63,760 bases of DNA, from the NCBI GenBank assembly GCA_050230475.1, contig JBFLGF010000191.1:1-63760 (forward strand), read 5' to 3'. The position numbers and the translations under genes are program-made. The DNA is from Ancylonema sp. Taxonomy: Eukaryota. How positions within the stretch are numbered: the first letter of the stretch is position 1; every line of letters starts with the position of its first letter. Under the pieces are notes generated by a model that was given only the letters and a program-made list of their open reading frames with translations, was not told where the DNA came from and ran no database searches. This document shows positions 28,796-63,760 of this stretch, one piece after another.

Positions 28796-28913
28796 GATTC
28801 GTTGAGGTGGCAATGCTGACTGGGCCTAGCCGACTACGTGGCTTCCTGATTACCCCATCTGTATTCGTGGCGGAGATGGATGCTGTGGCAATGTTCGACA
28901 TGTTGCCATCGTA

Positions 28914-31874: not shown

Positions 31875-32329
31875 TATAAGCTTTTGAGTGAACTAGGTAT
31901 AAGCTTTTGAGTGATTAGACGTGCCGGAATAATTAGGTGGGCGACAAAACGAACCGTACGCAAAAGGATCTCTCTCACTCATGATCAACGAGACAGGAGT
32001 TGCGGGTGTGGAACGAATTATTATTGTGATTGCATCGGGGATGGTAATACCCGATGCGCTTTAAAGATTGTTGTGTGCCGACCTATCATTGACTGACAGC
32101 TCTTCTACATGTCAACGGCACATGCCGGACATTTCTGACACGACTAAACAAGCCAATCACGACGCTTCAAACAAATAACGTCTCTAAGCGTCGGAAACAT
32201 GTCAGGTGCCCGGGCACAAACTTGCCCGGCCCCGCATACAGGCACATCTAGAATATTGCTCCCGGTTAGAGTAACCGGTTACAACTGGACTAGCACGCAT
32301 AACATATGGCTATCCAAAATATTCTAACA
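31875..32329 (-). repeat. 3' LTR of the second Copia (with extra 23-bp terminal segment)
   Basis: Near-identical to 37207-37667; preceded on the minus strand by the purine-rich tract GAGTGGGTG. Confidence 0.93.
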
Positions 32330-35300: not shown

Positions 35301-37194
35301 AAGATGTTGTACCCAGCTTGATCTGCTGCCAACCCAATATATACCCCAAAAGCAGTCTTGGCAGCATACTTGTCCCCTTGTTTATTTTTATCATGCCCAA
35401 CTAGCAAATATTGAACCAGACAGCCGAATGTGACTTCTGTTATCTGTCCCCATTTTTATCTGACGTCCTGTCCACTCCTCAATAGGTGTATCCCCCCTGT
35501 CAATGAACTAGTGGGGGTCCTGTTCCTTAACCAGTTTGCGTGCATCAGTGCCACATCCCACTACGATTTAGGCAATTTAGACCACAACAGCAAACACCTC
35601 ATCTTTTCCATCAATGTTCTGTTCAACCTTTCACACATTCCATTCTGTTGAGGTCTGTAGGGAGCAGTCAGTTCATGTCTGATGCCTTTATCCTCACAAT
35701 AGCCTCTCCACTCTTTACTTGTGTATTCACCCCCCCCATCTGTCACTTCAACGCCCAACGCCAGTCCTGATTCAACTTCAAGTTTCTGTACAGTGATGCG
35801 CGTTTTGACTGAGAGCATCGCTCTTGTGCCTGAGGAGAGATACTGTTGACAGTCTAGTGTTGACCTCTATCCCTGTCTGTGCGTAGTCAAAAACCCTCCG
35901 TGCATTGACTTAACACCAAAAGGAGACCCAAAAGGACCTATCAGGTCTAGATGCAACTTTCGGCATAGTGGCCACATCCTCGCTAGCAATAGCATGCCCC
36001 TTCTGTCCCATTTTCCCCATACAACAACAACAGATCTCACAATCCCTGACCTCAGTCAACTCTTCCCAGTCTCGGTATATCACCACGTCTGGCCATGTCG
36101 ACATGGCTGGGTGGTATACCAGGGTGACCCAGTTTGCCAATGCCAGAGCATGCCGATGGACCAGATTACCTTGGAGACCAGAAGAACCAGGCATGATGAT
36201 AGATGCATGCAGCAACGACAGACCCATTCCTCTGCCTGCTGACATCAGCCCATTTCAGTCCATTAGTCAGTTTGGGGCGGCCATGTGGGGTCTGGGCAAA
36301 GCTCAGCCCACCTCTCTGGACGAGGCAGTCGGTGGACACCAGGGTCGCAGCGAATGTAGGGACGTGCAGAGCAGCGAGAGGGACGACGAAAGAGGAGTCG
36401 TCGTTCTTCACTATCACGTGCACGCCTGTCCCCTCGACCTTGTGAGGTGACGAGCCGTCAGCAGTGGTGATGTAGGCCTTCTGCGTGCTCAGGGTAGGTG
36501 TGTACTCCACAAAATGTTCACGTGCCGTGAAAATGTGGTCGGTAGGACCTCAATCCAGGATCAGGGAGTCTGAGTGAGAACCAGCAGACAATGCCCGGGC
36601 AACATCGAACGAGAAAGCACCGAAAGCTAAATAATCCACATTAGCGTTGAAGGGTTTGTCAGCAAAGCGAGCAAGTCTAGCTTGTGCATCAGCCCTCCTA
36701 GCAGCTTCTGGGTTCATTAGAGCCATGTCAGATGTTCTTTTTCTACAATGTTCAATTGTGTGCCCTACAATGTTGCAATATCTGCACTTCTGCCTCCCCC
36801 CTGAACTTCCCTGAGTAGCGTGCGCAACATTTCCAGCTGCTGGCGATGTCGCAGGGCACTGAGCAGCTCGGTGGCCTGCCTGGTGGCACGTATGACACTT
36901 CCAAGCTCCCGCATGGCCTCCGCCAGGAGCTGGTGAAGGGCAGTTCGCTCTGATGTGCCCGAATTTGTGGCAGCCGAAGCATTCGACGCCTGCAGCGTCT
37001 CTGCGACCAGCTCCAGTCGCACCACCAGATCTGCTGCTACCTCCAGCGCAATGTCAAAATTACGTGCAGACCTTAACAACTACGAATATATTTGCGCTCA
37101 CTGGCAGAATATACCGTTCACAAAGATTCCCGCAGCGAAATCGCGTGGAGCCTTTAGTTTTTAACCAACACGGCGTCAGCACTAGACCGCACGT

Positions 37195-37206
37195 GGGCCC
37201 ATAACC
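37195..37206 (-). promoter_or_regulatory. Primer-binding site GGTTATGGGCCC (internal tRNA-iMet fragment type, as in Drosophila copia)
   Basis: Lies immediately internal to the 5' LTR; the motif is known from copia-clade elements. Confidence 0.8.
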
Positions 37207-37667
37207 TATAAGCTTTTGAGTGATTAGACGTGCCGGAATAATTAGGTGGGCGACAAAACGAACCGTACGCAAAAGGATCTCTATCACTGATGATCAACGA
37301 GACAGGAGATTGCGTGTGTGGAACGAATTGTTATTGTGATTCATCGGGGATGGTAATACCCGATGCGCTTTCCAGATTGTTGTGTGCCGACGGTCGGCAC
37401 AATTGACCGTCGGCCTATCATTGACTGACAGCTCTTCTACAGGTCAACGGCACATGCCGGACATTTCTGACACGACTAAACAAGCCAGTCACGACGCTTC
37501 AAACAAATAACGTCTCTAAGCGTCGGAAACATGTCAGGTGCCCGGGCACAAACTTGCCCGGCCCCGCATACAGAGCAAGGCACATCTAGAATATTGCTCC
37601 CGGTTATAGTAACCGGTTATAAGTGGACTAGCAAGCATAACATATGGCTATCCAAAATATTCTAACA
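37207..37667 (-). repeat. 5' LTR of the second Copia
   Basis: Minus-strand termini are TGTTAG...CTTATA; directly followed by the PBS. Confidence 0.93.
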
Positions 37668-37849
37668 ATGGCTACGTATTGTAGTCATCGTTTTCCTCAG
37701 ACATGTGTGTGCATGGGAATAGCAAAGATGTATGAAGAGATTATGTACAATGACAACTAGGACGAACTCACACACTTCGATGAACGGTTCGAATATCAAC
37801 ATATATGCTTTTGTGGGAAATGTTGTTTTTTCTTCATAATTGACCGTTT

Positions 37850-38374
37850 TTAAGGTCGCCAATGAGTTTAGAGATATGCTTTGGCTCTGAAAACAACTCT
37901 TTTGTGGATATTTAACTCGACATTTCTTTCCATGTCTTTTTTCTTTTCAATAGTTTGCTCAAAGTTGCGGCACTCCATTTATAACCACTCTCTCTTCCTA
38001 CTCAATTCTCCTACCTTTCACGTCCCTTGCTTCTCTAAATATATTAATAGTGGAAGGTCGCGTGCTGTTTTCCTCAAATGAAAATGAACCACGTCATGTC
38101 ATGGCGCGAAGTAAAGCGAATTGAAACTAACAATGGCCGCGACATATTTTTCCAATGGAATATTTCACAATTTTAGCGTTTGAAAGGGACGTGGCGTCAC
38201 CAACATAAACATTTACACCGATTTATTTCCCTCGCGTACGTTTTTTGGGAGGGAAAAAATGTCGACCGCGGGAAGGAGTAAAACCCTAAACATCTCCCGG
38301 TTCGTCCGGTTCCGAAACGGTTCCATCTCGGAACCGGTTCCATAAAAAAAAAACAGCCGGTTCGTGCAATTATG
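37850..38374. mobile_element. Right half of a hAT-like element, homologous to ~39020-39470
   Basis: Shared blocks CTACCTT(T/C)CAC(G/A)TCCCTTGCTTCTC, GTCACCAACATAAACAT and CCGGTTCGTCCG(G/A)TTCCGAAACGGTTCCATCT; ends GTGCAATTATG. Confidence 0.7.
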
Positions 38375-38559
38375 AAGGCAGCTATGGCCTTGGTTGTAGG
38401 GATGAAGTGGGACCGCTTCGTCACCCGGTCCACAACCACCAGGGTAGCATCGTGGTAGTAGCTAGGGGATAGATCTGTAATTACCGTAATTGGGATTTTG
38501 CCCCTCTAATTACAAGCCAAGTTACGATATTACGCGAAAACCGCGTAATTCGTAATTTG

Positions 38560-38697
38560 CATAGTTGTACGAACTCCGAACCGTTTCCCAAACGGATCTT
38601 AGATGGAACCGGTTCCAACAAAAGTGGTCGCGGTTCGGAACTGGAGGATTTAAGGTTTTTATCAATTGAACGTCATTTTGAGGGGTAATGTGGCACC

Positions 38698-38729
<32 letters not shown>

Positions 38730-39470
38730 CGTGTGACTCTTCATGCTCTATCTAATAAAAATATTAAACAATTTATATCCATGGTATACAAACTAAAAAC
38801 GATTTTCCGCATGAGTACACCCTTATGATAATTGGTGCATTTGTATAATTTGCTCGCTTCTTTGCAAACTGGTTTTCTATTTATGTACAAGTGGTTAAAT
38901 GAAATGGTTATATCTTTTTATGATCATCCAATGCTCATTTCCATTACATATATCTTTCCTCATTCCCATTTCCGTGTTTTACTTCCATGTGAAAATGTTG
39001 CGAGAGGATGTTTTTACCCGTAATCTAATGGCAATTGACATATGCTTCAACCTTCCATTTTTGTTCTCTTTTAAATCGTGCTCACAAAGCTCCAACATGA
39101 CTTTTATAATTACACTCGTCTCCTCTACCTTCCACATCCCTTGCTTCTCCAAAGCCGGATGTGTGTGTCAAAGTGGAAGGCCGGGTGTTGTTTTCGGCCA
39201 ATGAAATTGCACCAAAACGTCTTACCATGGCTCATTAGAACTTGCAATGGCCGCGCAATTTTTTCCCGATGAAATGTATAGTAATTTTAGCGAATGAAAG
39301 TGACGTGGAGTCACCAACATAAACATGTACAATGATTTCCCCGCCTACATTTCTTGGGAGGGAAAAAATATGATACCGCGGAAAGGAGGAAAACCCAACA
39401 AATCACCCGGTTCGTCCGATTCCGAAACGGTTCCATCTTGAAACCAGTTTTGTTACCGGTTGCAACTATG
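38560..39470. mobile_element. hAT-like non-autonomous element
   Basis: Ends CATAGTTGTAC / TTGCAACTATG; flanks GTAATTTG / GTTCTTTG (6/8 match). Confidence 0.75.
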
Positions 39471-39689
39471 GTTCTTTGAGAAGCGTCACTTTACAATTTA
39501 TACACGAAGCTTCGCAGAATTGTCGATATCAAGCCGGGATTTTCAAGTTTACACGTGTAGGAACCAATAAACACGTACGGATTCGTGTGTTTTCTATGAT
39601 CGCATGTGTTTACTTAAAACTTCACAGGTATTGTCTTACATTTAAACAAAAAAGCATCGTTCAGTTGTACGGAAAAGTACATGTCCTTG

Positions 39690-39930
39690 TACCGCACTGG
39701 CCACACATAATGACCCTAAATACTTATGAAAAGGGTGGGTCGGGTCAAATTAAATAATTCAGTTTCTTGAAAAAGTGGGCCATTCTATAATGTGGGTCAA
39801 TAGATAATAAATATTTCTCACGATGTTGGAGAATTTTCTATTGGGTGCGCGGGTTGGGTCAAGTGGCGGTTTCTTAGCTAAATTAATTCGTTTGAAATAA
39901 CCTTGGTCATTATCTATGGCCCCTACGGTA
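39690..39930. mobile_element. Tc1/mariner-like MITE, inverted copy of 13472-13714
   Basis: TACCGCACTGGCCACACATAATGACC / GGTCATTATCTATGGCCCCTACGGTA; the interior is collinear with the reverse complement of 13472-13714. Confidence 0.85.
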
Positions 39931-41152
39931 TATTTGTACATCATACACTCGAAATACGATATTTTGATTATAATATAATGTGTACGGTGGTATACGGTAT
40001 GTGTTGGTTCCACTTAGATTACGCTTGTGCCCGGGGTAACGGAAATTCTGGGTCCGTCATGACCAAAAGTAGTGAATCGTGGTAATTCGTAAGTTTACCA
40101 CGGGTCCGCGTAATGACGCGTCAAATGACGCGTTATTCACTGTCAAACGTTACCGTCACGGTATCGTCCACAACCCTACGAGTAATGCTCTTGTGTGTAA
40201 TTGCCATGCACTAGTTATGCAATTTCACAAATGTACTCCTCTCCTGCATCCTTTCATTCATTGTTTGTGGGGAACTAAGACATTGAGGGGAGGAGTGAGG
40301 ACATGGAAAGAAGGCGTGTTCATTTGAGGTAAGGAGCACTTTTCTTCTTGTGAACATGTGCGCACATGTGCAGGCATGTGCGTGGCCGAGTGTTGCAGGT
40401 TCGCAAAGAGTGCGCAGTGACATTTGAGTTAGGCCCTATCCCGCCTGGTCCTAGCCTATCCACGTTTCCGGATTCCCCGCTCGCGCCCTATCCTGTCAGC
40501 ACTGGGTTGGGGATTACCCAGTCGAAAGGCGAGGGGGGTGGGGCATTTGGGTCAGCACCACTTATGGTACACATGAGGGTTGTCGTTTTTGTTTTATCAA
40601 TTTTCACCGATGATCGGCGTCTCCGATCTGGATTGGGGCCGGTCGGAGATACCCTGATCCGGTTGCCTTACTAAATGTATACAACTCTGAAACCCTGATG
40701 GAGGAGGGTTCATCGATTGTAGACCCCTCTACTCTGATGCAGACATACGCCCTTCACTAGTGTAATGAATGAAGATGTCACCTTCAAGTTTCGAAAACTT
40801 CGGCCTTGTGTTCTTTTTTGAAACCCAAGACAGGTCACGCTAATAAGCCATCTAATCCCAATACTTGTTCATGCATATGAATACAGTCTGCACACAGTGA
40901 CAAACAACAGCCCTTGTGCTTCTTGGGAGATGACGTCACACGTCTACTCATCCCACCATCTTGGATGATCAAACCCAAAAGAGCTAAATAGGCTTCATGA
41001 GCCCATAGAGCCTACAGAGTCCACCGCACACTCAAAAAGCGTTTTGTACACCATACACAAGATGGCTACTAGTCTTGATTTATAGGAACTGTGCGAAACA
41101 CTGAACACACGTGAATCGGACCAGAAATTCCTATATTCAATATCCGTAATCC

Positions 41153-43756
<2,604 letters not shown>

Positions 43757-45709: not shown

Positions 45710-46819
45710 ATTACGAGTTTCTTAGTCACGGTAAGACCCCTCTAAATTATAATTCCCTTTTCAGCAAAACCTGTCTAAAAGAATACCGCCTAAAAGAATA
45801 ACCTCTCTAAAATAATAGAAAATGTCCCCTCCAACGTTGAGAAGTGTAGTTGTTCAACCGGTCTAAATGAATAACTTGTCCAAAAAAATAAAAAATAAAT
45901 CCCCCCCAACACTGTTCTTTTTGACAAATTTTATTGTATCAATATCCTTCGCCTATCCATACTTCGAAGATTACTTTTCTCTAGGAATGTGGCGCAACCC
46001 GAAGCCCTTCGGGTTGCGTGTTGCTATTTTTTTCGCAACCCCACGCAATCCCGCACAACCCCACGCAACCCCACACAACAACACGCAACCTCAAAAAGCA
46101 ACAACCAACCCCAAAAAACAACACGCAACAAAAAAAAAACACAAAAAAAGTCAAGTCACCCCCAAATGATGCAATGATAGAAACAAAGTTATGATACATG
46201 TAATGCGAGTTGAGCGTTGTTATTAGTAACGCACCGCACATGAGGAAGATGGAATCACTGGAAGGTAGTGAGATGGTCTCAATGTAAACAAAATGTATAT
46301 TTCTTTTGCATGTCGACTTGTGATGCCTTCAACATCGATGCTCGGATTAGATGATTGGTTTGCTTTACTTGAAAGTAAAGAAAACCAATGGTTGGTTTTC
46401 TTCATCCATAACGCAACGAGCGTTTTTATAATTTGTTTTTTAGTACCTTAATATGTTCAACATATGGTATCGCTCCGCACCAACATTTCCCATTTCTTCA
46501 TCGTTTTCAAGGAAAACATAGCAATTGTTCATACATTAAAATATTAGTATAAATCTAACATAGTATCTCACTTATAATTCATGGGAGTGTGAAACCATTG
46601 CAATGCTTTGAAGCGTGAATAAAAAAATAAGCAATACATGGGGCCACCGTGTGAGTGATATTTTTATGTGAGTGAGGGAGACTACACATGGCAGTTGGCA
46701 TAGAGCATGACAAGTAAGGGATTCGGTCCAATACATTTTACAAATTTCTTGGAATACATACCCAACAACAAAATTGTCATAAATAAAAGTGCCGCAATCA
46801 TAACTCGAAGTGTATCTAT

Positions 46820-47180
46820 CGTTGCCTGCTACGGAGCTTGGTGTGCTCACACTTTTACACGACGCAAGTCGGTGTGCACACTCACAATTTCTTTGTTGCT
46901 GAATACAAGCAATGCAGACTTACACATAAACTATTGCTCGTTGATCGAGAGTTATCGTTGTACATAGTGTACTATTGTATCGCATTCTTTATATATCAAA
47001 CTCCCATGTAGAGCTATCGCGTTGTCAACTTGCCCGTAGTGAGAGAGTTGCCGAGTTGCCGAGTTGCCGAGGCGTTTAGATGATCGTTTACGATCACTGC
47101 CGCGATTCAAGCGAGCCAAACTCCTAAGATTAAGCGAAAGGGACCCTAGCCATCAACTTTCCTGAGACTACTTGGGATAC
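46820..47180 (+). repeat. Fragment of the LTR-like family of 56442-57332 (3' portion)
   Basis: CACACTTTTACACGACGCAAGTCGGTGT, GATCGTTTACGATCAC and AGCGAAA...GCCATCAA..TTCCTG blocks match the reverse complement of 56442-56780. Confidence 0.75.
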
Positions 47181-48134
47181 CTCGAGCCTCTCCTAGCGTA
47201 CAAAGATCTTTCATCTCATAGAGTCACTCAAGAAGTGCGTGATGGAATGGTAAGCATGTTTCTTGAAGACTGCACTGATATCAGCATTGAGACCAACACC
47301 CGACTACTCGGTGCAGCGAAGTGCATGGAGAGATGGATCAGTGATGCTATAGCAACCAAATACAAATGAGGACGTAAATGAGCGAGTTGTGAATGGATTC
47401 GTAGATGACCAAGTGCAAGCTAGAAAAGAAGACCACAAAGTAGAATCTGTGTAAGAAGTGAAAGTGGAGAAAGTAGTCGAGGGAGATCCTGAGTTGATCG
47501 ATGAAAACGAGAAAGAGGAGAGGGAGCTGAGGCAGCGACTGAAGGATCTTGAGTGGAAATGGGATGAGTTGTAGCGAAGCCGAAGGGACATGGGAATCTC
47601 CAACGCTTCAGAAAGGAGCAACGGAGTAGATGAGGAACGACGACTGCAAGTGGACCTGGCTGGAGCAAAGCTAAGGATATTTGGGGGCATGGCATACAAG
47701 TATGAGGGGGCAAGAATGCGATCAACATACATTCCACCTCGGGTGGCGAGGGAGAACACAACAATGGACAATGGCTGGGATCCCGAGGGCATCAAGAAGT
47801 ATAACGATCAGAGTGACGAAGAGTTTGACATGTATATCGATGACTAGAGACGTGTGAACGTGGATGAGAAAGGAAAGAAACAAAAGGAGACACTTGGTAT
47901 AAATCGACAGGATCATGGATGGATTTCGAGAATGTTCTTTGGGACGTATGGAGTGCAGCGTATGTATGTAGTAAAAGTTTTTCTTTGTGAAGGAGAGCAG
48001 AAGTAGTGGAGGGATGTGGTACGGAAATAGTGAAATTTCTACGATAATTATTATAAAAAAAAAAAAAAAAAAAAAAGGGGAAGGGGGAGTTTTTTTTTAA
48101 GAAGAGGATATAGTCACTATTCTTGATTAGGGGG

Positions 48135-48280: not shown

Positions 48281-49150
48281 TATAGTCGGCCCCGCCCCGC
48301 AAATCCCGTCCCGCTTTTCGCCCCGGGCGGAAAATTTTCTGCCCGGGGCGGAGCTGTAGAGATTTTCTTTGCTATTTGTAAAAGGATCCGAAGACCACGT
48401 AGATCATGTACATCTTTTCCAAATTCAAATCCGACTAGAATAGTTATAGTTAGGTACACATGAATTTTCATATAAAGTAGCACAATTTGCGAAGGTGGTA
48501 TTGTGATTGCTCACTCTTCATCAACAAGTTTTTTCCTTTTCGGATATTTCCTCTTAGTAATATTTGGTTTTTTGCTCCAAATGATAACGAGATTCCCATC
48601 TCTGTTAGCCTATAATTACCAACACATAAACAAAAACGAAAAAAATCATAATATACATGCGAAGGGATGTTACAAAACGGCATTGGTACAAACATTTTAT
48701 ATATTTTATATATATGAAAATAATTGTTATATCCATACATATATATATATATAAATATAAATATGTATATATATGCATAAATATATATATTTTAAAACAC
48801 TAAGTACGCTTGCTATCTTTACCCGTGTAATATTCTTTTGTATATCTCAAATTTTATTTTATTTACTTTTTTTTTTTCAACGCATTACACCACGTCATGC
48901 TACGGAGCCGGACTCATGGGTGACATTAGATGATATCGGACGTGTTACGTTTTGCGCACACTCTGCAAGAATTCAGTTTTGAACAAACCGAACATATCTC
49001 AGCATTTGTTTTTGTTTTTTTTGTTTTTTTTTTGGTATCGTGACCTATGGCTTTGCCCCGCAAATTCCGGCCCGCTTTCCGCCCCGGGAGAGCCCGTTCC
49101 GGGCGGCGCCCGGGGTGGAAAATCTTCCGCCCGGGGCGGGGCCAACTATG
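48281..49150. mobile_element. hAT-like non-autonomous element with GC-rich GCCCCG subterminal repeats
   Basis: TIRs TATAGTCGGCCCCGCCCCG / CGGGGCGGGGCCAACTATG; flanks AATAAATT / AGTAATTT (6/8 match); AT-rich core. Confidence 0.75.
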
Positions 49151-49855: not shown

Positions 49856-51624
49856 CGATGTCTGAATCCGAACAAATAAAAGATGACTAGAAGAAACTAC
49901 AAAGTGACTAGGATAGCGGCGCCATAACTTTATGCGGTACGCTAGGAGATTCTAAAAACTTTTGTATCCACAAGGGATAAAACCGACTTGGCAAACATCC
50001 TAAAATCAGTTATTCCAATCATCTTGACATCCTTGCATAATGTTGCACTCGTGTTGAATGTTTTTTGTAGTTCCCCTATGTTTCCCTTGCATCGATAGCT
50101 CCGGACCATACTGTGGAAGTCCCTGTCTCCAGAGAGGCAGAAACGAAGTCCTGCCCACAGAAAGGCTGAAGCGTGAGAGAGATTCTTGTCCACAAAGAGA
50201 CAGAGGTCAGTCAAAGGAAATAGTTGTCGAGAGCGTCGATAGTGTTTCGATAAGACGTTTGACAACGAACAGATTATGTATACGCCTATAATACGCCTTT
50301 CGAGAAGTATGTAAATTAGTTGTAGTATAGTGTGAAAATACACGTGCCTGAATCGGGTGGTGAAGTAATTTTATGTAGCATCATGTGTCATGGAAGAGTT
50401 TTAAGAATAGAGTCTACTTAAGTGTTTTCGGGAGCATTGTCGTCAACAGAGTTACGGATTGTTGCTCGGCTGTTTTAGGGTGGGGTGTGCTTGCCTTATT
50501 CTGTTCCGTTAGGGTGGTGAAATAACGTACTCAGATGGGGTTCCAATTGTGCTCCAAAAACGCATAAAACGCATCTCCACGTTTTCGGGAGGATATGAAC
50601 ATGGGCAAAGTAAGACGCGAACGTGTAAATGACATATTGAAAATAGATTGAGACGTTCAAGTGTGAATGTGAATCATTCCATGTTTTCGAAATTTGTCGC
50701 AATTTGAAAAATACGACATGGAAAAGAAAGTTTCGATACTATGTATTATTTCCCCATACAATTTGGGAAGAAGTCTCTTTCTGCTTTTTTATTTGAAAAT
50801 GGTGACAACACGCATATTCCTTAGCACTAGTTGTTTTCATAACTCATATGTTATGCTAAATATTTGTTTGAAAATGTTGTTAAAATCACAAGACAAATGA
50901 TCCACACAATAATTGAATTTTCGGAGTTCTCTTCACAAAGAAACCTGTTATCACCCCGAAAAACTGAAATAACCACAATCTGCAGGTCTGGTACGTTGGA
51001 TGGACCCCGGTCCGGAACCTGGACCTCGGGAACCCGGTTCGTGCAACTATGCTACATCTTTTTGATTCAAATATGACAAGCTGATGCCACCATGCCCAAC
51101 TCCCATATTCCAATCAGATTAAGATACTAAAAACCACATCATCAAGACGGCTCATTCGCTTTTTCAAAGGTGTCCGATTGAGTTTCAAAGAATAAAAGAA
51201 TGCACTAAAATAGTGTGTGAAGCAAGCAAGTGTCTAAAATTTGTCATCATCTACACTTGACAAACTAGATCACATACTAGTAAAACAGATCACACACAAC
51301 TTTGATGGTTCATCACGCTTTCTTGCTCGATACTTCATGAGCCACTATCGTACAACAGTAATGTACAAGCGGAGACCTTGCACCAACAAAACGCCGGTTT
51401 CAACGACCCACGACACACTCCTTAATAATTTTCTACATTCACACACTAATATTGCTTGGAGGCACGCTTCCACGAGCACGAAGTCTCTTTCCTTCCACGT
51501 CGCCTTGGTGTCGGTTCCTCCGATTTGCTCGAGATCGATTTTGTTTGCACCGTGATTGGTTGGAGCACCGGTTTTGAAAGCAACTTGGGAGCAACGGAGG
51601 TGGTCGATGAGTTTTTCCACACTT

Positions 51625-51924
51625 GCCTTCTTCATCCTTTTTCCGCACCACCACCGTAGCCGATGCGTACTTGGTTTGTGTGCTTTTCCGAATCATGCCG
51701 AGGACCATAAGTTTTTGGCAATTTTGGTCGACAAACTCCCACTCTGTAGGGCTGAGTCGATGTGCACTTTGAAAGACGGGTTCTGTTGTAGTAAGGGGAA
51801 TGGTCATGGGTGTATTGTAAGATGTACCCAGATCGTCGAAGGAAAATGTAAAACAATCGCAATTCTCCTCTAGAAGGTTCACCACTTTTCCCCGTTGTTC
51901 TTTTGTAAGTTGCGCACCGATGTT
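51625..51924 (-). pseudogene. Ty3/Gypsy reverse transcriptase N-terminal stub
   Basis: VVNLLEENCDCFTFSFDDLG...MTIPLTTTEPVFQSAHRLSPTEWEFVDQNCQKLMVLGMIRKSTQTKYASATVVVRKKDEEG; recognisable homology stops before the RMCxDYR and YxDD motifs. Confidence 0.85.
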
Positions 51925-52244
51925 CTATTTAATGTCAGGTGTTGGTGGATCGTTGGTGTCGTTGACGGGTAAAATGGAACCATGTGATAGGTTGCCAAAT
52001 TCAGGTGGGATGATGTGCTCCAAAGATGGGGATGTGTCCGCCAAATATTGACCATCCATTGTTGTTGGTTCGAAGACTTGTACTTTATTGTCGAAGAATT
52101 CACCGGATTCTTTATCGAAGTGTAAATGATGGAAGTCGTCGGGAACCGTGTAAAATGCTCCCCTCCTAACCGTAGATGATGATGCCGGATGGTTGGGTGA
52201 TTTTGGTTCCGCATATTTAAGTGGTGTGTTGTGGACAACAAGTA

Positions 52245-53160
52245 GCATGCCTCCTAACCACTTCACCATGTTGCGGTCCATTGAGCGGTCAAGCAATTGA
52301 TTACGTTGGTAATCGTTGAGTCTTTTTGCATTCTTATCGCTACACTCAAACCCCATCATTCTTTCTCTTTCCCACATGTTCGAAGATTCCCAATCATGGC
52401 GTGTGTGAGTGTACACCATGCCGGGTCCGGGACTTCCATCTGATTGCATGACGAATTGGTAACTCCCAGGAAATGACACCAAATTTGGTAAAGCTCGTCA
52501 TTTTTCACCGATTTTATTGACAGTGGCAAATGGTGGAGTGTCGTTTTGAAATACCAGAGCCGGTGAATGATACCTCTCCAAATGTAATTCCACCAGTGGG
52601 AGATCTGGCACGTCTGGTAGTGCGTTTTCCAACATTTGTGGTTTAATGAAGTTGGTCCAGATGCATTGAAGCCGGTGTGCTGTGCTACCGCAGCCTACAG
52701 CATCCACCACTGCGGGCGTTTCTAGGAAGGATTTGATGAGAATTGTTGTGTCAACAACTTCTTGATTGAGTTCGCCCAGCGGGTAAGTATTTTCAAACAC
52801 GAACACTTGGGGGTATAGTTTGATTTCCGTCAAATGGTTGACCGCCCGAATGAGGTCGAAGAAGTAGGGAAAGCGTTCATCTTGTATCCCAACTTGAATC
52901 CTCCTCGGCTCACCATTTGGCATTCCCATCCTGCTACAATGTAGTCAATAGGTCCTTCTAACTTCACTAATGCAGTCAGGTGATCATTTGAAATTTGACT
53001 TATTTTTATTTTTTGGTAAAAATGTGCTTGATGTGTGTCGAGAATCCTTGCAGATGTTTGTATGGGTAAAACATCGCACAAGGTAACGTGCTTCCATGAT
53101 TGATACCAAACCACTACAACTCGATCCACCGAATGGTTCCCAAACATGTCCTTGTTGTAT
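52245..53160 (-). pseudogene. Retrotransposon-encoded cytosine-5 DNA methyltransferase domain (disrupted)
   Basis: Motif I WEPFGGSSCSGL (~53139-53104), motif IV GPIDYIVAGWECQMVSRGG (Cys at 52920-52922), GIQDERF, motif VI FVFENT, motif VIII DAVGCGSTAHRLQCIWTN, motifs IX/X ERERMMGF...QRNQLLDRSM; at least two frameshifts and one internal stop. Confidence 0.88.
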
Positions 53161-53764
53161 GGGTTTAGGGTCAAAACGCGCATTGGCCCGTGGTGGTATA
53201 GGAACAGCGTCACGGATTGGGATACCTTGTCAAGGTCGTGGAGACGGTGCTATTCGAAGAGTCAACACCCGAGTCTCTGCTTGCCGAAGGGTTTCATGCT
53301 TTGTAAACGTAAAGCCGTCAATCTTTGAGTTGCCGTTTTCTCCGAAACTTATGCAAGTGTTCGGCCCGAAACTTCAAGTTGAGGGCGTATAGCATCACGG
53401 ATGTCCGTGTGACATTTGTAGTTAGATACACGAGGGTGTTTGTTTCCCAATTCGTAAAAATTGCTCAAAGTCCTCCTCTGGTATAGTGAGAGTGACTACA
53501 ACCTTCCGATGTTGTAAATTGTTTTCTGACACATGGAACTCATAGTCAGCCAACACGTCGTCCTCATGTGTTGAAGCAAATATTGTTTCATCTTCGCGTC
53601 CCAAGATATCGACTGATGTGCCGATCTCCATCTCCATATATTGCATAGGTTTTGGATTGGAGGTTGGATGTGGCTGGTGATGCGCAATCCGAATAGAAGC
53701 CATTTGTTTGCCTCCCTTGTCCTAGTCTACATGGCAATGAAACCGATGGGTCCAAGTGTCGAGA

Positions 53765-54070
53765 CTACTCCGATGGGAACCAGGAATGCATTCCCAAGAA
53801 GCACCGAGAAGGCGTCTGCTAGTGAAAGATGTAAGTTTGTAAATACAAACTATTGGTGTGCATCTTTGCCAATGCTGATAGGGAACTTCTTTTTGGTTGT
53901 CTTTAGAGACGTATGAATATCGCCACATGCGGTTGTATATGCAATGCAAGGCTCGACGTCCTAGGGTGTAATGTCCAAATCTTTAGTTAAACCTTTTCCG
54001 ATGATCACGGTGCCTCCACCTGAATCCACAATGACGTTTTGTGCAGGGACTTCTCCAATTCGCAGATTAT
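53765..54070 (-). pseudogene. Retropepsin-like aspartic protease remnant
   Basis: VIVDSGGGTVIIGK, then in frame past two stops AYTTACG and AFSVLLGNAFL. Confidence 0.8.
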
Positions 54071-56441
54071 CGATAACGTTTGGAATCGTAATAATAGTCC
54101 AATTTTCCGTTGCACGGACTTTAGTGGCAACTACCGGTAATGCATGCACCTTAGGCAGCACCAAGAATATTGTCGATGGTTTCAAACACGACTTCTCAGG
54201 TGGTGCTAGTAGGTTGGGCACCACTTGTTTTGTATTGTCGACACATCGATTATCCAAACATTTCAGGATGTGTAGGAGGTGTGACTCCATTCTATCCATT
54301 TGTTCTTGGCCCGCTGCTTGTCGTGCAGTCCATTGTTCAGAAAGATTGTTAAATTGTTTTTCTGTGATAGAATTATGAACTGTGGCTACGGAAGTATATG
54401 CCGGTGTGTCTTGAGCAAGAGCTGGTGCAAGTTTGGTTGGAATGTTTGCCCGAAGTTCATCGTACCACGCTCCTTCTACTTCTTGGATTTACATCGATGT
54501 CGAATATGGAGGATTAGTTATCCAACGTTTCCTTCGTTGTCGTTTGAGAATAGAGATGTTGCTTTCACTCTGCAACCGCTCCTCATATGGAAGATCATGA
54601 AGTGTCTCCTTTGCTTCCTCCATCGTGACGTAGAGTTGTTAGAATCGCATGTATCGAAAGTTATCAGAGACAAAGGTGAATTCCATAGTGTACTCCAGCT
54701 GCTCCTAGATTAAATCAATTCGCACCTCTTGTTATGTAAATGTCCTCTTCCAGGGTGTGGTGTCGATGGTATGGACTGGTTTTGCGTCAACTGAGATTTT
54801 CCGAAGTGAAGCCAGAGGGCAGACCGCTTCCAATAATTGTGGATGTGTGTAAGGTGGAGCTACTTGTCGATGCATTGTAGGTGATAAGTTTGTAGGGTTG
54901 TACTTCCCCTCCTAAGTTGGTGTAGGCAGGTTCGAGTAGCTTTGTCAAAAAAAAAACTCGGCGAGAAATCGATGAGCTTGATGCAGAAGTTGCGCTCCTC
55001 CACTCGATGATCTTCCGCTCCTTGTAAAAAATATTGAATTAAACACTTCAATTGAAGTGAGAAAATGCTTATTCGAAGCCGAATGCAATGTTACAACTCA
55101 AATGTGAATTAGATAAGTTGATTTTGCAAGCAGAATATTTTTGTGCAATCTTGTAAAAACTTGTGAACAGGGGATGGTGTAACAAGCCTAGGCGTTCGGC
55201 ACGTAGTAAGAAAGGGTTATGGTACCACGTGGTATCCAAAGATAGGCGTGGCAAGACTCTGAGCCGTGGGGCTTTCTCAGAGAGGGAATGATATACATCT
55301 CACTTGTAACCTAGAAGTAGGAAGATCTGGTGGGCACTAGATCCTTGCAGGGGATAGAGACGGAGCTCAATGTAAGAGAACCACTGGTAACCAAATGGAA
55401 AAGTCTCTGACAGGGAGATGTCAGTGCACTCGAGAAATGTCCTTTGCAGGCACTCTTTCAAATTACAAAGACCGGGGTAAGACATTTTCCAAGTGAACGT
55501 GTCACCCAAGGGGAGTGTGAGTGTAAGGTCGGCTCACAGGATAAGTATACAACCTCTCTTATGTTAAGAGATTGGGGAGAGTGCAACCCGAAGGTGGGAC
55601 ACAGAGTAAGGTTTACCGGAATATGACCTGAAAAGGCACTTTGTAAATTTTGCCTCACTGCTGCAAAAGCACTCCGTGGAATGGTCAAACAAGTTAGCAA
55701 AATTTGACCCTCCTAGGTTTGCAAGTTACGGAACCGCTTGGGCAATACCAAAGGAGGTGGCAAGTCTCAAGGTTACGGCTCTAAGGCACGACTTTTCCTT
55801 CGGACTGCCGAACTTGCTTTATTCTATCAGACAAGTTTTGATTTGGTGAGTAGTAGTTGTTTGACCGCTGAAGGGTCAGTCACCGTGTAAAAAGATTGTT
55901 TTGACCACTTAAAGGACCAGTGCCTTGTAAAATGTTGGGTGTCGCGTGGACCGGACAACGGTAAAGTAACTTGCTAGATGCCAGATGCAAAAATCGATGG
56001 ATAAAATAGAGATTGGGCACAACAGTGTCCAGGATATGATGCAGATCTATACAACCTAACAACAACAAAGTCTGTTGGCTGTCTCATATGCAAGATTGAT
56101 CAACACAAAGTTTTTTTTTTTTTTTTTTTAAGTTTTTGAATTCAGGCAAAATTTACAAGTTTACAGATCATTAAAATTTCTTAAATTTCTGCACAAATGG
56201 CACACTTTGCAACCTAACAATTCTGCACAAAATAGTATTTCACAAAATTCATAGAATTTTGATGAACGACACGCACATCGAAGCAAGATTCACAAAGAAT
56301 GCTCACGATTTTTTTTTCTACCTCCAGCTCTAGTAGCGCGTAGCGCTAAAAGCACACAAGATTGATGGTTTAAAAAAAAAAACTAAGCAATTTCAGTCGA
56401 TTACCCTAGCATTAGCGTCGATGCATAAATTCTGGTCGCCT

Positions 56442-57332
56442 TGTAAAGCTAGAATCCCAGGAAATTTGATGGCCAGAGACCTTTTCGCTAAATATAAGGT
56501 GTTTGTGTACGCTTGACTCACGGCGGTGATCGTAAACGATCACTTGAACGAGTGGAGGTACGTCGCCTTGTTTCGGCAACTCTCTCACTATGGGCAAGCT
56601 GTCAACAAGATAGCTCTACATGGGATCCAAGTTAGAGTATGCGATAAAATAGTTCAGCAAAAACACCTACAGCTCTCGGTCAGCGAGCAGCTATTTGTGT
56701 TTAAGTTTGCACTGCTTCTAATCAGCAGCAAAAAGACGGTAAGTCTGTACACCGACTTGCGTCGTGTGAAGTGTGAGGTCACGAGGATGCGTAGAAGGCG
56801 ACGATAGTAAAGTACGGAGAGGGAGAGCTCGATCAGACAAGCAATAATATTGGCAAGCAAGGAATGCGAAAGCACAAATTGCGAGCAAAGCACGATTCTT
56901 ATACCAGATACAAAATACACGAGAGGCAAGAAGAAATGCAAGTCTCTATAGTGTTAGATTCAGCGAAAGCTGAATTCTGAGTCTCGATTACAATGTTTTA
57001 TTCGAACTCTAGTGACGACGCTAGACGCGTGTCTATCTACAATTGATTCTTAGAAATAAGTCTCGCGCGCAAATGTTTTATCTACAATATCTATCGTCGG
57101 ATATTCATTGACGGCTAGCATTTATTTCAAGTAATTTATTGATCACATTTGGATTGCTAACTAGTTAAAAGTCACGTCGGATTGACGGCTAGTAAATGCT
57201 AAACAAATTCAATTCAAATTTTGAGCGGGGGCGCAGAGTGACGACTAGAGCTCGGGAGCGGGGCCGGCGAGCGGGGCGGAAGTTGTTGTGCGGCGGAACT
57301 CATAATATGGCGCGGCGCGGACGTCATTTATC
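56442..57332 (-). repeat. Putative 5' LTR of the DNMT-bearing Gypsy element
   Basis: Dispersed homologs at 24094-24735, ~24930-24990 and 46820-47180; homology ends near the minus-strand ...CTTTACA (56442); the outer boundary is uncertain. Confidence 0.6.
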
Positions 57333-60172
57333 ATAAGGAGAGAGTTGGTAGATATAGGGAGTAATATAGAGAACGATCTCAGACGTCGTGACAACCGGGT
57401 AGCTTTCATCCAGCCACAACAAAACCCCCGGTCGCCACGCGGTTGCGAAGGTGCCACCCGGGTGGGATGCGGTTGGGTGGTCGCCAAGTTGGCCGACAAA
57501 ATGCGAAAATTTAGTATACATATTTAATTTTAACGAAATAAGAAGTAAACTCGCAATAACATTTACATTATTAAAAGACGTCTGAGCACTAAATTTTAGC
57601 GTCAGTGAAGAATAACTGAAACCAATGCGATGAGAATGATGCAAGTTTGTCATGCCTATTTGAGTCGTCAACTCAAATCCCATATGTTTTAATTTAAGTA
57701 TAAAAACAGCCGCGCCGCTATGCTTTTCCGCTTAGTCACGACTCCACCTCCGCTCATGACATTCCGAGCTTCGTTGCTGACCAGCGCCGCAACCGGCACC
57801 GGCTTTGTTATGTTTGATTTTTCAACCTTTGACTATTTCTTTTGTATTTGAATTGATTAGCCTACGTGCCGATAAGTTATCAATAATACTTGATCGTGAC
57901 CGTAGCTTTCTATATCGACTGCTCATAATAAATGAGATGTCTGCAGGCAGTAGTACTGCACGCGCCGAGTTGATTATTTATTTCTTGCCACGCGTATCTG
58001 AGATAGCGCGCAAATATAATATTTCGAGTTGCCAACAACAAAGGATTTATATAACACTTTCAAATCATAAATTTTGATGGATTTGATGCTAAAGAGATTA
58101 CCTTGCACACCATTGTTTTTTGTGTGTCCTTGTTATCGCTTAGCTTGCCATCGTGACTATTGTTTTTGCAAGTTTCATTACTTTGTCGATTTTAGCCATT
58201 AAATTGAACTTCTTGTTATAAGTGGTCAATTGTAGCTCGGATTATTGAACTAGTATTATTGTCGTATTCAATACAACAAAAAAAAGTCGTTGTAACATTT
58301 TTTCAGAAGTTAATTCCGAGTATTGTAGCCTATCAACGTTTCCAACGAGTTTAAAGATTCGTAGTGCGCGCTGAGCTTATTCCAGAATGCCAACTTGTGA
58401 AGTGAGTTGTCGCACGTGCCTCATATAAGAGCCTAAAATTAAGAGTTTAGATGTCATGTCTAGTCGATAATTTTTATTAGCCTTAGATCAAGGTATGATT
58501 GTATGAGCTTCGTGTTGCTTCACTAGCCATAAGTTCATATATTATGAATGCTTGCTTGTGCGTGATATTTGCATCTCAAGTGAATGCTACACACCGTTTT
58601 ATGGTAAGTTGTTTTATTTTGTCGTTTACATAGTCAGAATCCGGTTACCCTCACAAGTGTCATCACCCTTGCAAGTTTTGTGACTATGTATTGCGTTGAC
58701 GTCACCAGAATCGTTTACGTCAACCTACACCACTTAGTGTACGCTAGATCGTGTCTTCACGCTTTGAGCCGTCTTGTTCTTCTCATCGTTTGAAATAATT
58801 TTTGGGACCGGAGAATATATCCATCGCGGCAGAATAAAGGTCCCTAGATTTTGTAGGTATTTTACGGGAATAACTGTTTCCTATTGGTTGCGGGAGCTAC
58901 GCTTTCATTTTACGACTAAAATAGAACGTACGGACAACATCCTTTTCCAGCTGGTCGACTCTGCTGTGATTGGCTCACAAATCCTCACAAGAAATCCCCA
59001 CATAAAGGATTCAGGCCCCAAATCCTCATAAAAATCACTCTGACGATTTTCAAAATGGATTTTCAAATCACTTTGGTTCCGATAAGCAACAATTCGACGC
59101 TTTATTTTCATGTTGGTTGGGGAGTCGATTAATTTAGGGTGTCTCCCCAACCGAAGTCGACGAATCCTCCGTCCTATAAGCTATGCTCTTACTACTTAAT
59201 TCTGTCATCTATGCAAAGATCGTTGCAATAATCACACAGTCATGAATTAAGTAACGCACGATAGTACAAAATCACTTCAACAAAAGAAACGGTAGAAAAA
59301 CTTTGATTACCATTTCGAAGTGTAATATTTTCTCTTTGGCCAGACATCACAAGTCGCTCCCGGCGCCACACAAGTCGATTAGACTAAACCTTAATAATAA
59401 TATCGACAAGACATCGACATCCGTCGACACGTGGCCAAATGTGCCAATGACAACACATGTCATATCAAACTAACAAAGCTAATTCGATATAACAAATCGA
59501 TACTTGCCGAGACAACAAATCATGTCTTGAAATACTTCGTTAGAATGACGCTTCTCAAAAATCGATATATAACAACAAACATAGTTCCCAGCCCAAACTT
59601 AACAATCAACACTATGTAAAGACTCGATTGTATGAGGTACAATCCCTTGACGTACCGATAGAGATCGATGACGTCACTACACGTGCGGCTAGTAAGGCAA
59701 CCTTAAACATGCTAATGACACATGCGGACGCGTGCGGATATAGATCCGCATGCAAGCAAGCGCTGACTACTTGCATCACAACATACATAGCATCACACCA
59801 CACCACAACTCCCCTGTCTAGCGAGACTACAAACATGCAGTTTGGTTTTACTACTATCCAAGGCAATGGAGACCTTGGTCGCCCAGATGCGCGGTGAGCT
59901 GGCGATCTGTTTGGCTAATGGGTTCCTGCCGACATCTAAACACTACTCAACGCAGCGGTATCACTACACAGAGTAATGCAAGACACGTGCGAGGCGATGA
60001 TAGAAGTTCCGGGAAGTTATCAGAAAAGTTAAGGTACAACGCTACTCCTGGCCCTATTATAGTGCAGTGGGTGAGGCACCCCCGCACGTGCGAAATCAGT
60101 GGCAACTCTACTAGCGTAACGCTTACGATGAAAGCTACCCTAAACCAATCAGTGTCCGACTTACAAGCCCGT

Positions 60173-60619
60173 TGTTAGGGGCGGATGCAAAACGTCCCTA
60201 GCAAGCTAATTGCAATGCACAATAGCTATGATGGCGAAAGGCCGGAATAACAATGGTGGCCGAAGCCGGAGACAGGATGTTTTGGTTTTGGCAATAATGG
60301 TCAACTCGGAGAGTGCAATACATGAGTTGATAGGAATGCTCTAGAGGTATTCCTATGGACTAAATATAGGAAAGTCGACCCTAGGCGATTCTAGGATCAA
60401 TGTGGGATAACTAGAACTCGATATAAGAGTAAATTGGAAAGCTAAGGGCAAACACTAGTTATGGGGACAAAGTCGCTAGGAACACATATCTCACTATAAA
60501 GGGACAGAACTTGATATAAGGACAAATTCGCTACTAGCACTCTAGGGCTAGTAGCATGGTGTAGGAGGCACACTCTAGAGACACACTAGTGGCTATAACA
60601 CTAGTGGCTAGTCCTAACA
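60173..60619 (-). repeat. LTR (447 bp), TGTTAGG...CCTAACA, probably the 3' LTR of a minus-strand Gypsy-like element
   Basis: Perfect 7-bp inverted termini; PPT-like GGGGGGTAC abuts it on the minus strand; no TSD is seen. Confidence 0.8.
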
Positions 60620-61615
60620 GTACCCCCCGTGTAAGAAGAGCTGGGTAGACGGCCGGGCTGAGAGGTGGAGAAAAAATGAGCCCGGGGACCCGGGTGGAGG
60701 GCGGAGCTCCGGGCTGAAGGCAATGAGGGCCGAGATCGCGGCGGGGGAGTACATGAGCCTAGGGTCGGGCGGAAAATGTCGGGCTCCCGTCAATTGGGAA
60801 ACCGGGAGCGGGGACCCGTGAAGGGACGGCTGGATGGAGACGATCTGAAAATTGGAGATCGGGGAACTGCGGAAGCGACCTTCGGATCCAAATGTGTCAG
60901 AAACTTGGGTTCGACAGGATGACGCCACGTGGAGGAAATTGGCGGATTGAGCCAAGATGGACGCCCCGCTGGCAGATTAGAAATCTGGGTAGGGTGGAGA
61001 TGCCGTCGGATGACTCCCAGTGGACGGCGGAGATAGAGATAAGTTCTCAAAAAACTTGGCGAGCTGCGAAACGCCGATGTGGAGAGACATTGCCGAATTT
61101 CGAGGTTCCAGAATGTTCCGAGTACGGCTAGGATGCAAGCCCGGGCATTGAAGGTTGGAGATGAGGCCACGTCGAGCGGGACGAACCAAAATCTGGAGAC
61201 TGGGACCTCGATCCCCCGCCAATCTGCGCAAGCGTAGCGGCTGGAAATCAGGCCGGAAGTTGCATGCCGCACGTGCGACCGAGCTAGCTACGGCCAGCAG
61301 AGGGCTCCGATCACGCGAAGTGCTAGTAGGAGAGCACGGGCACGTCAAGTCAGACGGCTTGATGAGGGGAAGGGTCGTGGGAGGGTAGGGACTGGGGTAG
61401 ATAAGAACAACTCCATCGTGGTAGCCGCTCTGCAGGGGCACGGAGGTCGAGGTTTGACTCCTCGGGGAGCTATTAACTGGAAATTGGGATCGGGAGGGGG
61501 ACTGAAGGGGGTCGAAAACAGGGTTGGGAATTCGATTAATGTCCGGTGGTGTAGTAGGACGATATGGAGAATTGTAAGGGAGGGAGGGGTGTAGGTGCGG
61601 CTGACAGGTTGTTGA

Positions 61616-61925
61616 TGTTAGGACTGCCCCTCTATAGCCACTTGTGTCTCTAGAGTGTGCCTCCTACACCATGCTACTAGCCCTAGAGTGCTAGTAGCGA
61701 CTTTGTCCTTATATCCAGTTCTGCCCCTTTATAGTGAGATATTTGGTCCTAGCGACTTTGTCCCTATAACGAGTGTTTGCCCTTAGCTTTCCAATTTACT
61801 CTTATATCGAGTTCTAGTTATCCCACTTGTATTGAGCCGGTTTCCTCCTATATATAGTCCATAGGAATGCCATTAGAGCACTCCTATCAACTCATGTACT
61901 TGCACTCCCGATTATGATCACCACC
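61616..61925 (+). repeat. Truncated inverted copy of the 60173-60619 LTR
   Basis: TGTTAGGAC...GTGTCTCTAGAGTGTGCCTCCTACACCATGCTACTAGCCCTAGAGTGCTAG... is the reverse complement of ~60290-60619. Confidence 0.9.
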
Positions 61926-62419
61926 ATTTTCCATTCGCTCATACCATCTCATTCATTCGGCATTTCGCCACATTTCCGCCATCTTTCCATGGTTGTGGAG
62001 AAGAAACCTCAGGTGGTTCTGGTTCCCATTCCCCGGAGGTGCTCGGATGAGCAGAGATGGAAGGAGTTGGCTGCTTGGCCAGTCGCTCTCCCATTCTGAA
62101 AGCAGACTCGGACAAGAGTGGTTCGGTCTCTTCGTATCTGATCGGCTCGTCCGTCACCGAATCCCAAGCCACTTTCTTGCCTGTTGCTTCCGTGGCACCC
62201 AATCTGGAAGATCGCCTCAGATTTAGGTTTTCAGCAGCAGCTTGCAGCTTCAAGGCCGACTTGAGAGGCAGCTGGCACCCTTGAAGAAAGGGGTCATCCT
62301 CCACCACATAGCCATGGTTGAGGTAGCGAGGCTCAAGCTCCTGCAACTCGTCTATGCGCTGCATGAAAGTGCCTTGTTGCGCTTGAAGAACATGCTGGGT
62401 GGCCTAGGAGGAAGCTAGG

Positions 62420-63684
62420 GAGTATCCAGCTTGCTTCTGCTTGCACTGCGCTTCGGTGTGGTGCATCTTCTGACAAAAAGTGCACCTGGCACCCTTCGTC
62501 CGATCTGCCTCCGTGAGGTTCCACCTCTGCAGTGGTGCAGACCCAACGCTGCTTGCAGCTCCCGAGGCAGCAGATATAGAAAGACGCTGCTGCGTCTGCT
62601 ACTGCTACTGGCCACCTCTGCTAGGAGCTGCCTAAGATTGGCCAGCTCCACATGATGTCGGCTTGGACGGGCAGGGCCGCATCAGATGACGTGTCTGGCC
62701 GCACGTGTGGCAGGCACGGTCGTCGCGGCCAGAGTAGGCAAGAGTAGGAGATGGAGTAGAGCCTGAGAGTAGGTTGGAGCGGGTGGGAGCAGAATTTTGC
62801 CTCCCAGATGACTGCTGCTCCTACTGCTAGCCGAAGTTCCCTTGCAGAATTTGCACTCTCCTCGCCACGGGCTGCATAATCAGGTTGGTGACGTTGTTGT
62901 TGGCCGGATCCAACCCGAAGTTGTAGAACTCCGCCGTCCTGGTCTGCAACGTATTCTCCGCTGCAGCAGTGATGGTGCGAATCTGATCGCGACCCATGGT
63001 TGGTAAGCTTGTAGCCAGCCGTCTCGCCTCCTCAGCTCGGTAGGTAGCGTCCATCTCAATCTTGACAACTCTGGGTAAAGCGTTGTAGAACCACAGCGCC
63101 CCCTCCCTCGGGATAGTCCGTCCAGACTTCTCAGAAGCAGTAGCATCTTCATCGATCTTTGTGAAGATCATGTGGACGGAGTCCTCTGGGTCCGCCTGAA
63201 AGTTACGCAGCCTGTTGAAGGCTTTGGTCACGTCGTTGATGAACCGCAGACGGATGGCAACGAAGAAAGATTCGATGTCGTCCGGTTCATCGGCTAGCGG
63301 AGGCTGAGGAGGGTGTGCAGGGTCGGGATGGTTTGCCTCTTCCCGTCGGTAGGTCATCCAGGCTCTGCGGGCGGCAGCTCTATCCGCTTGCCGCTGATGA
63401 TCCGCGTGGCCGGCTGGAAAGACCGCACTCCTTTCGGTGACGTGGTTGGTCAGAACTTTCCTGGCATCCCGCCCGAGGAAAGGAGCCAAGTCGTAGAGGA
63501 GGAATTCGATCTCCCCATATCCCTTCTTGATGCGGGCCGGACGCATTGCGATCTTATAGTAGAGACCGCGAGCATCGATGAAGAAATCTGTTTCGTGGGA
63601 GCTTATCGCCCCATTGTAGTGAGCGATGGAGTCGGCCATGTCTTCAGAGTCGTCTTCTAGAATCTGTCTGTTGAGCAGAATCAC
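62420..63684 (-). pseudogene. Retrotransposon Gag remnant with two CCHC zinc knuckles
   Basis: 285-aa ORF with capsid-like FFVAIRLRFIND...LRNFQADPEDSV...FYNALP; downstream CHTCGQTRHLMRPC (~62715) and CTFCQKMHHTEAQC (~62485); premature TAG at 62827. Confidence 0.75.
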
Positions 63685-63760
63685 CCGCGGAGCTAGCGGT
63701 GATGTGGTCTCTTTTGTCCCGTCATCTTGGGAGCCGGACCGCGAGCCTGCGGGTCCTTAC

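Follow-up and report, generated by a model that had tools for sequence, protein, structure and literature searches.

The window, by which we mean the whole 63,760-nucleotide stretch analyzed here, holds a copy, decayed and truncated, of a Ty3/Gypsy retrotransposon from a multi-copy family. The Pol polyprotein of this family has a DNMT3-like cytosine methyltransferase (DNMT) between the protease (PR) and the reverse transcriptase (RT). We predict that the enzyme of intact copies methylates the new cDNA of its own element, and we give this reading as a whole a probability of about 0.6. The window element is a decayed addition to the Gypsy-DNMT3 elements already described. The interesting part is the wider spread of such elements in green algae and the two slots that the methyltransferase occupies in their Pol proteins.

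Domain order and decay of the window copy

Three-frame translation of the minus strand gave, from 5' to 3', an aspartic protease, a C5-DNMT, and the N terminus of a Ty3/Gypsy RT (Table 1). The initial annotation had read the same order, and motifs and profile scores confirm it. Against profiles made from database relatives with the window left out, the protease scored 27.2 bits (E 9e-8; 12 relatives), the DNMT, translated with X at its breaks, scored 226.6 bits, and the RT piece scored 63.7 bits (E 4e-19). Shuffled controls (200 codon shuffles in each of three frames) reached at best 1.8, 2.7, and 3.1 bits for the three profiles. The relatives had been chosen on the DNMT alone, so this choice could not have shaped the PR and RT matches. 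The protease also aligned with the protease of one relative, P0075, at 28% identity (E 3e-5). Pfam found no DNA_methylase, protease, or RVT_1 match on the window pieces (0 of 9, then 0 of 4), so the profile check proposed in the initial annotation succeeded only through the relatives, whose profiles match all three domains and which themselves match PF00145. The domain assignment in the window therefore rests on the relatives. A PDB sequence search returned 0 matches for the RT piece and only three chance-level matches for the protease piece.

Table 1. Features of the retrotransposon copy in the window
Feature	Position	Strand	Remarks
Non-coding, highly repeated region upstream of the ORF	55180..56115	-	candidate LTR or 5' leader
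ORF region with many stops, Gag position	54045..54875	-	ATG at 54875; same frame as protease
Retroviral-type aspartic protease	53766..54044	-	DSG at 54026-54018; 2 internal stops
Long PR-DNMT linker	53176..53765	-	frameshift near 53725, several stops; no similarity found
DNMT3-like C5 cytosine methyltransferase, pseudogenized	about 52225..53175	-	226.6 bits, family profile
DNMT motif I (EPFGG)	F at 53133	-	translation
DNMT motif IV (GWECQ)	catalytic Cys codon 52922-52920, kept	-	translation
DNMT motif VI (ENT)	52794-52786	-	translation
DNMT motif VIII (H-R-x-Q)	52677-52666	-	translation
DNMT motifs IX/X	about 52370-52246	-	translation
DNMT-RT linker, about 100 codons, in frame	51922..52224	-	stop at 51927-51925
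Ty3/Gypsy RT N terminus, about 100 residues	51623..51921	-	cut off at 51623

The common Pol order is PR-RT-RH-INT, of which the window shows the PR and the RT N terminus only; full-length relatives of the same group run PR-(DNMT)-RT-RH-INT. A profile search found no RNase H, integrase, or PHD finger anywhere in the window. The last ORF piece, 51924-51439, had been taken as RT; it is RT only down to 51623 and unrelated sequence further on. That piece does share one frame with 52944-52498 and 52497-51925, as had been claimed, but GWECQ and the protease lie in another frame, with breaks near 53725, at about 53025-53005, and at about 52893. Two relatives, P0038 and P0142, align across the DNMT-RT linker. 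The region in the Gag position had no capsid or CCHC signature, no match to the Gag profile of the relatives, and no Pfam match, and in an Atlas search, the stretch ahead of the protease returned nothing but leads below 0.9.

Upstream of the ORF, the summed depth of contigs from X1, a sequencing run that may be the source sample, was 27,000 to 42,000 over the repeated region, versus 590 to 9,200 over the coding part and about 125 to 150 on unique contigs; this depth is not a copy number. The copy is truncated, and the window holds no second LTR. No clear primer-binding site and no tRNA genes were found. The RT is cut off by a short, highly repeated sequence (51480-51623) whose first letters on the minus strand are TGT; it had no Pfam match in the frames tried. 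Another very abundant repeat lies upstream of the element at 56455-57300, with inverted copies, 74 to 75% identical, at 46816-47167 and 24094-24760.

Motifs I, IV, VI, VIII, IX, and X of the window DNMT stand in unpermuted order. The motif set of the initial annotation thus holds in its order and its catalytic cysteine, but not in motif VIII, where the second arginine is lost. The threonine of the P-T pair and the glycine of motif X are lost as well. Relatives keep these three residues in 150 of 151, 150 of 151, and 139 of 144 cases, respectively. The reading frame is broken by a frameshift at 53025-53005 with a deletion of about 67 nt, by a second frameshift at about 52893, and by a stop at 52500-52498. 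X1 contigs matched the window with 0 to 1 differences and no gaps across 52850-52941, 52912-53039, and 53057-53194. Both frameshifts are therefore present in the genome. Other copies have one extra base near 52881-52892. In one contig of X3, an independent metagenome, 130 letters stand in place of 63 letters of the window (52947-53011), which gives a net deletion of 67 nt in the window copy. The short spacing of motifs I and IV agrees with this deletion: it is 71 residues in the window, versus 83 to 99 in the 13 type-B relatives and 87 to 95 in 94 type-A relatives (types defined below). Two of these changes, the stop at 52500 and the one in motif VIII, are transitions of the CpG type and are absent from most other copies. 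With its stops, frameshifts, deletion, and lost conserved residues, the window copy is dead, and it is impossible for an active enzyme to come from it.

Relatives, enzyme type, and two positions in Pol

Over 50500-57500, we found 3102 X1 contigs, of which 2371 were less than 95% alike to the window, and every part of the element was covered. The element is a multi-copy family. Other copies show loose ends at 51623 and 51635 that, by eye, continue into the next RT motif of the relatives. Among the contigs shown, no single one bridges DNMT and RT in another copy from the host, so we infer their linkage in sister copies from tiled pieces and database relatives. Of the 48 differences to other copies that were listed inside the DNMT, 27 are silent, against an expectation of 12.6 for the same transition/transversion mix (p 1e-5); the count covers the 48 best-supported rows only and is not a Ka/Ks estimate. 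This excess in the sequence comparison points to purifying selection on the DNMT in active lineages. A search of viral and metagenome contig collections for related loci gave no confirmed locus.

Direct database searches returned P0002 (55% identity, ENA metagenomes, a cluster of 10) and P0001. A profile search returned 2602 cluster representatives at E<=1e-3, 656 at 1e-10, and 234 at 1e-30; the weak tail of the 2602 probably includes ordinary C5 methyltransferases. We sorted the best 150 relatives by the position of the DNMT in Pol. In 86 of them (type A), the DNMT comes after RT-RH and/or before the integrase, usually with a PHD finger. In 13 (type B), it comes after the protease and/or before the RT (12, plus P0142). 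The other 51 are too short to tell the slot. P0133 is ambiguous (PR-DNMT-INT with no RT found, on the A side of the tree) and was left out of the A and B counts. The full-length type-B proteins P0045, P0166, and P0169 run CCHC-PR-DNMT-RT-RH-INT in a single ORF and have no PHD, which bears out the earlier proposal that the DNMT belongs to the Pol polyprotein of a Gypsy element. Some type-A Pol proteins (P0041, P0050) have a G-patch domain at or just past the C-terminal end of the DNMT. Among the 20 of 150 relatives that were looked up, the named type-B members are from Closterium (Zygnematophyceae), and the one named type-A member is from Scenedesmus sp. PABB004; the others of the 20 are metagenome records.

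DNMT and RT trees, a check proposed in the initial annotation, were built from the window and these relatives, and both place the window with the PR-DNMT-RT group. In the DNMT trees (FastTree with 152 rows and a quick IQ-TREE with 46 rows), types A and B lie on opposite sides of one branch, which had an SH-aLRT of 98 in the quick IQ-TREE. The slot label needs 1 change on this tree, versus a mean of 11.6 after shuffling. The window DNMT is on the B side, grouped with P0002 and P0026 (99). These two, at 52 to 57% identity, form its subgroup, followed by P0019, P0151, P0153, and P0021. In the RT FastTree (57 rows), all 11 type-B rows stand together with the 99-residue window piece at 0.86, a weak placement because the piece is short. 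Both DNMT and RT trees are unrooted, with neither host DNMT3 nor non-DNMT Gypsy RT outgroups; midpoint rooting of the RT tree puts type B within type A, a nesting that the DNMT tree does not show.

It is extremely improbable that a single host DNMT3 retrocopy inserted in a dead Gypsy, or a chimeric assembly, produced this arrangement. Such an accident would fit the failure of Pfam to find any of the three domains in the window pieces. However, the same order occurs in 13 of the best 150 relatives, some of them single-ORF, and the DNMT and RT trees agree. Furthermore, contigs of divergent copies together cover every part of the element, and identical or near-identical contigs carry both DNMT frameshifts without gaps. 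The shared order, the contigs, and the RT tree contradict a one-off event, and we rejected it.

The methyltransferase resembles DNMT3. A family profile run against the PDB found DNMT3A/B/C first (E 1e-22), with DRM at 1e-12 and HhaI at 1e-9. We then took the DNMT domain of P0075, for which the AlphaFold model had a pLDDT of 95. Foldseek again placed DNMT3A/B/C at the top (E 1e-19), and VIA-align matched the model to DNMT3B with a Z score of 29.0 and an rmsd of 2.5 Å over 275 residues. The runners-up were M.MpeI (Z 25.1), DNMT2 (23.2), HhaI (22.9), DNMT1 (20.2), and DNMT5 (19.8). The best viral match was a phage enzyme (E 2e-17) with a poorer fit (rmsd 7.1). By this predicted fold and the profile, the family is closer to DNMT3A/B than to DNMT1, 2, 5, CMT, DIM-2, or bacterial enzymes, a closeness judged on the family alignment and P0075 rather than on the broken window protein or a rooted DNMT tree.

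The catalytic residues are well kept in the relatives. The motif IV cysteine is present in 141 of 141 and the motif VI glutamate in 150 of 151 rows with a residue there, and both motif VIII arginines and the SAM-binding motif I are almost invariant. The residue before the catalytic cysteine is glutamate in 88 of 140 relatives and the canonical proline in 41 of 140; the window has glutamate. Because glutamate is common at this position in the relatives, the odd GWECQ loop is a family trait and not decay.

On balance, we lean toward the following history. Rather than a peculiarity of Klebsormidium, Gypsy-DNMT3 would be an old green-lineage superfamily, present in chlorophytes and streptophytes and made up of hundreds of divergent clusters. 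A single captured DNMT3 would have changed its place in Pol, and two lineages would have resulted, RT-RH-DNMT-INT-PHD and PR-DNMT-RT-RH-INT. The family-wide E-C loop may confer an activity or specificity of its own on nascent cDNA. The window would then preserve the remains of another subgroup within the second lineage, and its streptophyte host would be one from which such elements have not been recorded. An accessory enzyme that can occupy different Pol slots is reminiscent of retroviral dUTPases. Among the matches listed, our literature search on transposon-borne DNMTs led only to PMC5890265, its citations, and the EpiLTR preprint discussed below, with no description of two slots or of Closterium or Scenedesmus elements; subscription journals and bioRxiv supplements were outside its scope.

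Described elements and the host genome

The closest described element is KnitGypsy-Dnmt3 of Klebsormidium nitens, a Gypsy whose Pol ORF includes a DNMT3, with a Ka/Ks of <0.2 (de Mendoza et al. 2018, PMC5890265, cited here and below from the available part of its text). The initial annotation had named the right precedent. Like the window element, KnitGypsy-Dnmt3 has a DNMT3-type domain without the DRM rearrangement inside a streptophyte Gypsy Pol, under purifying selection (PMC5890265), and the window domain is likewise intronless. The two differ in host, and the copy in the window is both truncated and dead. KnitGypsy-Dnmt3 has a DIRS-like layout of repeats (PMC5890265); the window copy lacks its 3' half. 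None of the 20 relatives looked up, out of 150, was identified as a K. nitens sequence. KnitGypsy-Dnmt3 gave no methylation in yeast, a result that its authors call inconclusive because human DNMT3B failed too (PMC5890265). The available part of PMC12344493 repeats the account of this element.

The Closterium type-B elements (GJP34393.1, CAI7911866.1, CAI7886383.1, CAI5973665.1, CAI7855100.1, CAI7850249.1, and CAI7734670.1) are annotated as hypothetical or unnamed proteins only. They share with the window the order (CCHC-)PR-DNMT-RT and the G-W-E-C-Q loop, and they fall on its side in both the DNMT and the RT tree. However, they are only about 30% identical to it, and the window falls in its own subgroup with the metagenomic P0002 and P0026. 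Type A, exemplified by the pol KAF8056149.1 of Scenedesmus sp. PABB004, has a homologous DNMT and a related RT, but its order is PR-RT-RH-DNMT-INT-PHD and it lies on the other side of the DNMT tree.

Other retroelements also carry such enzymes. SymbioDIRS-Dnmt3 and SymbioLINE-Dnmt bear a retroelement-borne DNMT, as the window element does, but they belong to other retroelement classes and are independent captures; the DIRS form is a DNMT3, and its domains methylate CG de novo in yeast (PMC5890265). The EpiLTRs of Euglena gracilis and Cymbomonas tetramitiformis are LTR elements with a C5 DNMT in Pol (bioRxiv 10.64898/2026.05.21.726589, available in part). Their enzyme is sister to DNMT4 and is accompanied by DAM and a chromodomain, whereas the window DNMT is DNMT3-like. 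In the part of that preprint available, the authors treat streptophyte Gypsy-DNMT3 as known and distinct from their own enzymes. Pfam found no DAM or chromodomain match in the full-length type-B relatives P0045, P0166, and P0169. The available parts of PMC11244446, PMC11982613, and PMC9940879 hold nothing further on transposon-borne DNMTs; in PMC9940879, a Chlamydomonas Gypsy bears a PHD, and the legend lists no DNMT for it.

The window also carries genes of the host, namely an F-box plus Tub gene, a MOV10-type helicase, and a plant-like eS7. For the Tub gene, 7978 candidates were scored, and only the liverwort Calypogeia fissa, 43% identical, reached E<=1e-20. By these genes, the host appears to be a streptophyte, probably not close to well-sampled land plants.

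The window holds several other elements. On the minus strand at 62000-63760, there is a second Gag-like ORF, in which a CCHC knuckle lies at 62727-62659; it matches the Gag of the Closterium type-B relative P0056 (E 2e-5). An inverted-repeat element comes next, and neither a protease nor a DNMT lies after the ORF. This ORF may be a piece of a different Gypsy that belongs to the wider group of the DNMT-bearing element. The neighboring element, at 60319-61898, has long terminal inverted repeats (184 nt, 96% complementary), an additional 53-nt outer pair, and a GC-rich interior; it is possibly a non-autonomous DNA transposon. Two Copia-type elements lie on the minus strand, one at 20956-23976 with RVT_2 and one at 32079-37573. 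The flanking direct repeats of the latter (31898-32241 and 37207-37573) are 98% identical, so it is probably young. Short GC-rich palindromic repeats at 48292-48354 and 49055-49142 flank an AT-rich core and are MITE-like. Among the 2-kb non-coding bins in 6001-14000, 24001-32000, 46001-48000, and 58001-60000, several are poor in CHG (observed/expected 0.5 to 0.7) with CG not depleted (0.8 to 1.3), a possible footprint of long-term CHG methylation of host repeats.

Predicted role of the methyltransferase

Ty3/Gypsy particles package Pol, which the protease cuts, and the RT makes double-stranded cDNA there. A DNMT released from such a Pol would stand alongside the RT and would meet the double-stranded cDNA before and during integration. 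Because the RT makes the cDNA in the particle, a Pol-borne DNMT3 catalytic domain without PWWP or ADD would act on that cDNA in cis. It would add 5mC de novo, in CG context by analogy with DNMT3A and SymbioDIRS-Dnmt3. The new copy would then enter the genome already marked, and it may resemble host DNA or be kept quiet and tolerated. The CpG observed/expected ratio is 0.86 in the element and 0.72 in its DNMT part, versus 0.61 and 0.49 in the two Copia elements of the window. Since the element is not CpG-depleted relative to these, it shows no footprint of extra CG methylation, which speaks against the simplest form of this reading.

The DNMT could also act after integration. In this scenario, it would travel with the integration complex and methylate the insertion site or the promoter of the element, leading to self-silencing and less harm to the host. 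The type-A arrangement suits such an activity, with the DNMT directly before the integrase in proteins that usually bear a PHD finger, and a slowing of transposition that benefits the host is among the options offered in the available text of PMC5890265. In type B, the group of the window, the DNMT precedes the RT, away from the integrase, and the full-length proteins have no PHD. We hold this reading to be unlikely for the window element. It is compatible with cDNA methylation, the two not being exclusive, and it fits type A better.

The E-C loop in place of P-C hints at yet another role. The domain might be kept for something other than C5 methylation of DNA, such as nucleic-acid binding, covalent trapping, RNA methylation, or other cytosine chemistry. 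The frequency of E-C in the relatives, the lack of CpG depletion in the element, and the inactivity of KnitGypsy-Dnmt3 in yeast (PMC5890265) would all agree with this. However, the near-invariance of the cysteine, the glutamate, both motif VIII arginines, and motif I in the relatives argues against it, as do the P-C members of the same tree and a fold nearest to DNMT3A/B. We consider such a role distinctly unlikely and prefer the reading in which the enzyme methylates the cDNA of its element.

The contribution of the window copy is limited to a further host and a decayed example. The role of retrotransposon-borne DNMTs was left open in 2018, and the sole Gypsy enzyme tested was silent in yeast. 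The relatives now supply many DNMT3-type domains that are intact and compact (about 330 residues), that occupy two slots, and that in some cases come from cultured Closterium and Scenedesmus strains; these can be assayed for activity and sequence context.
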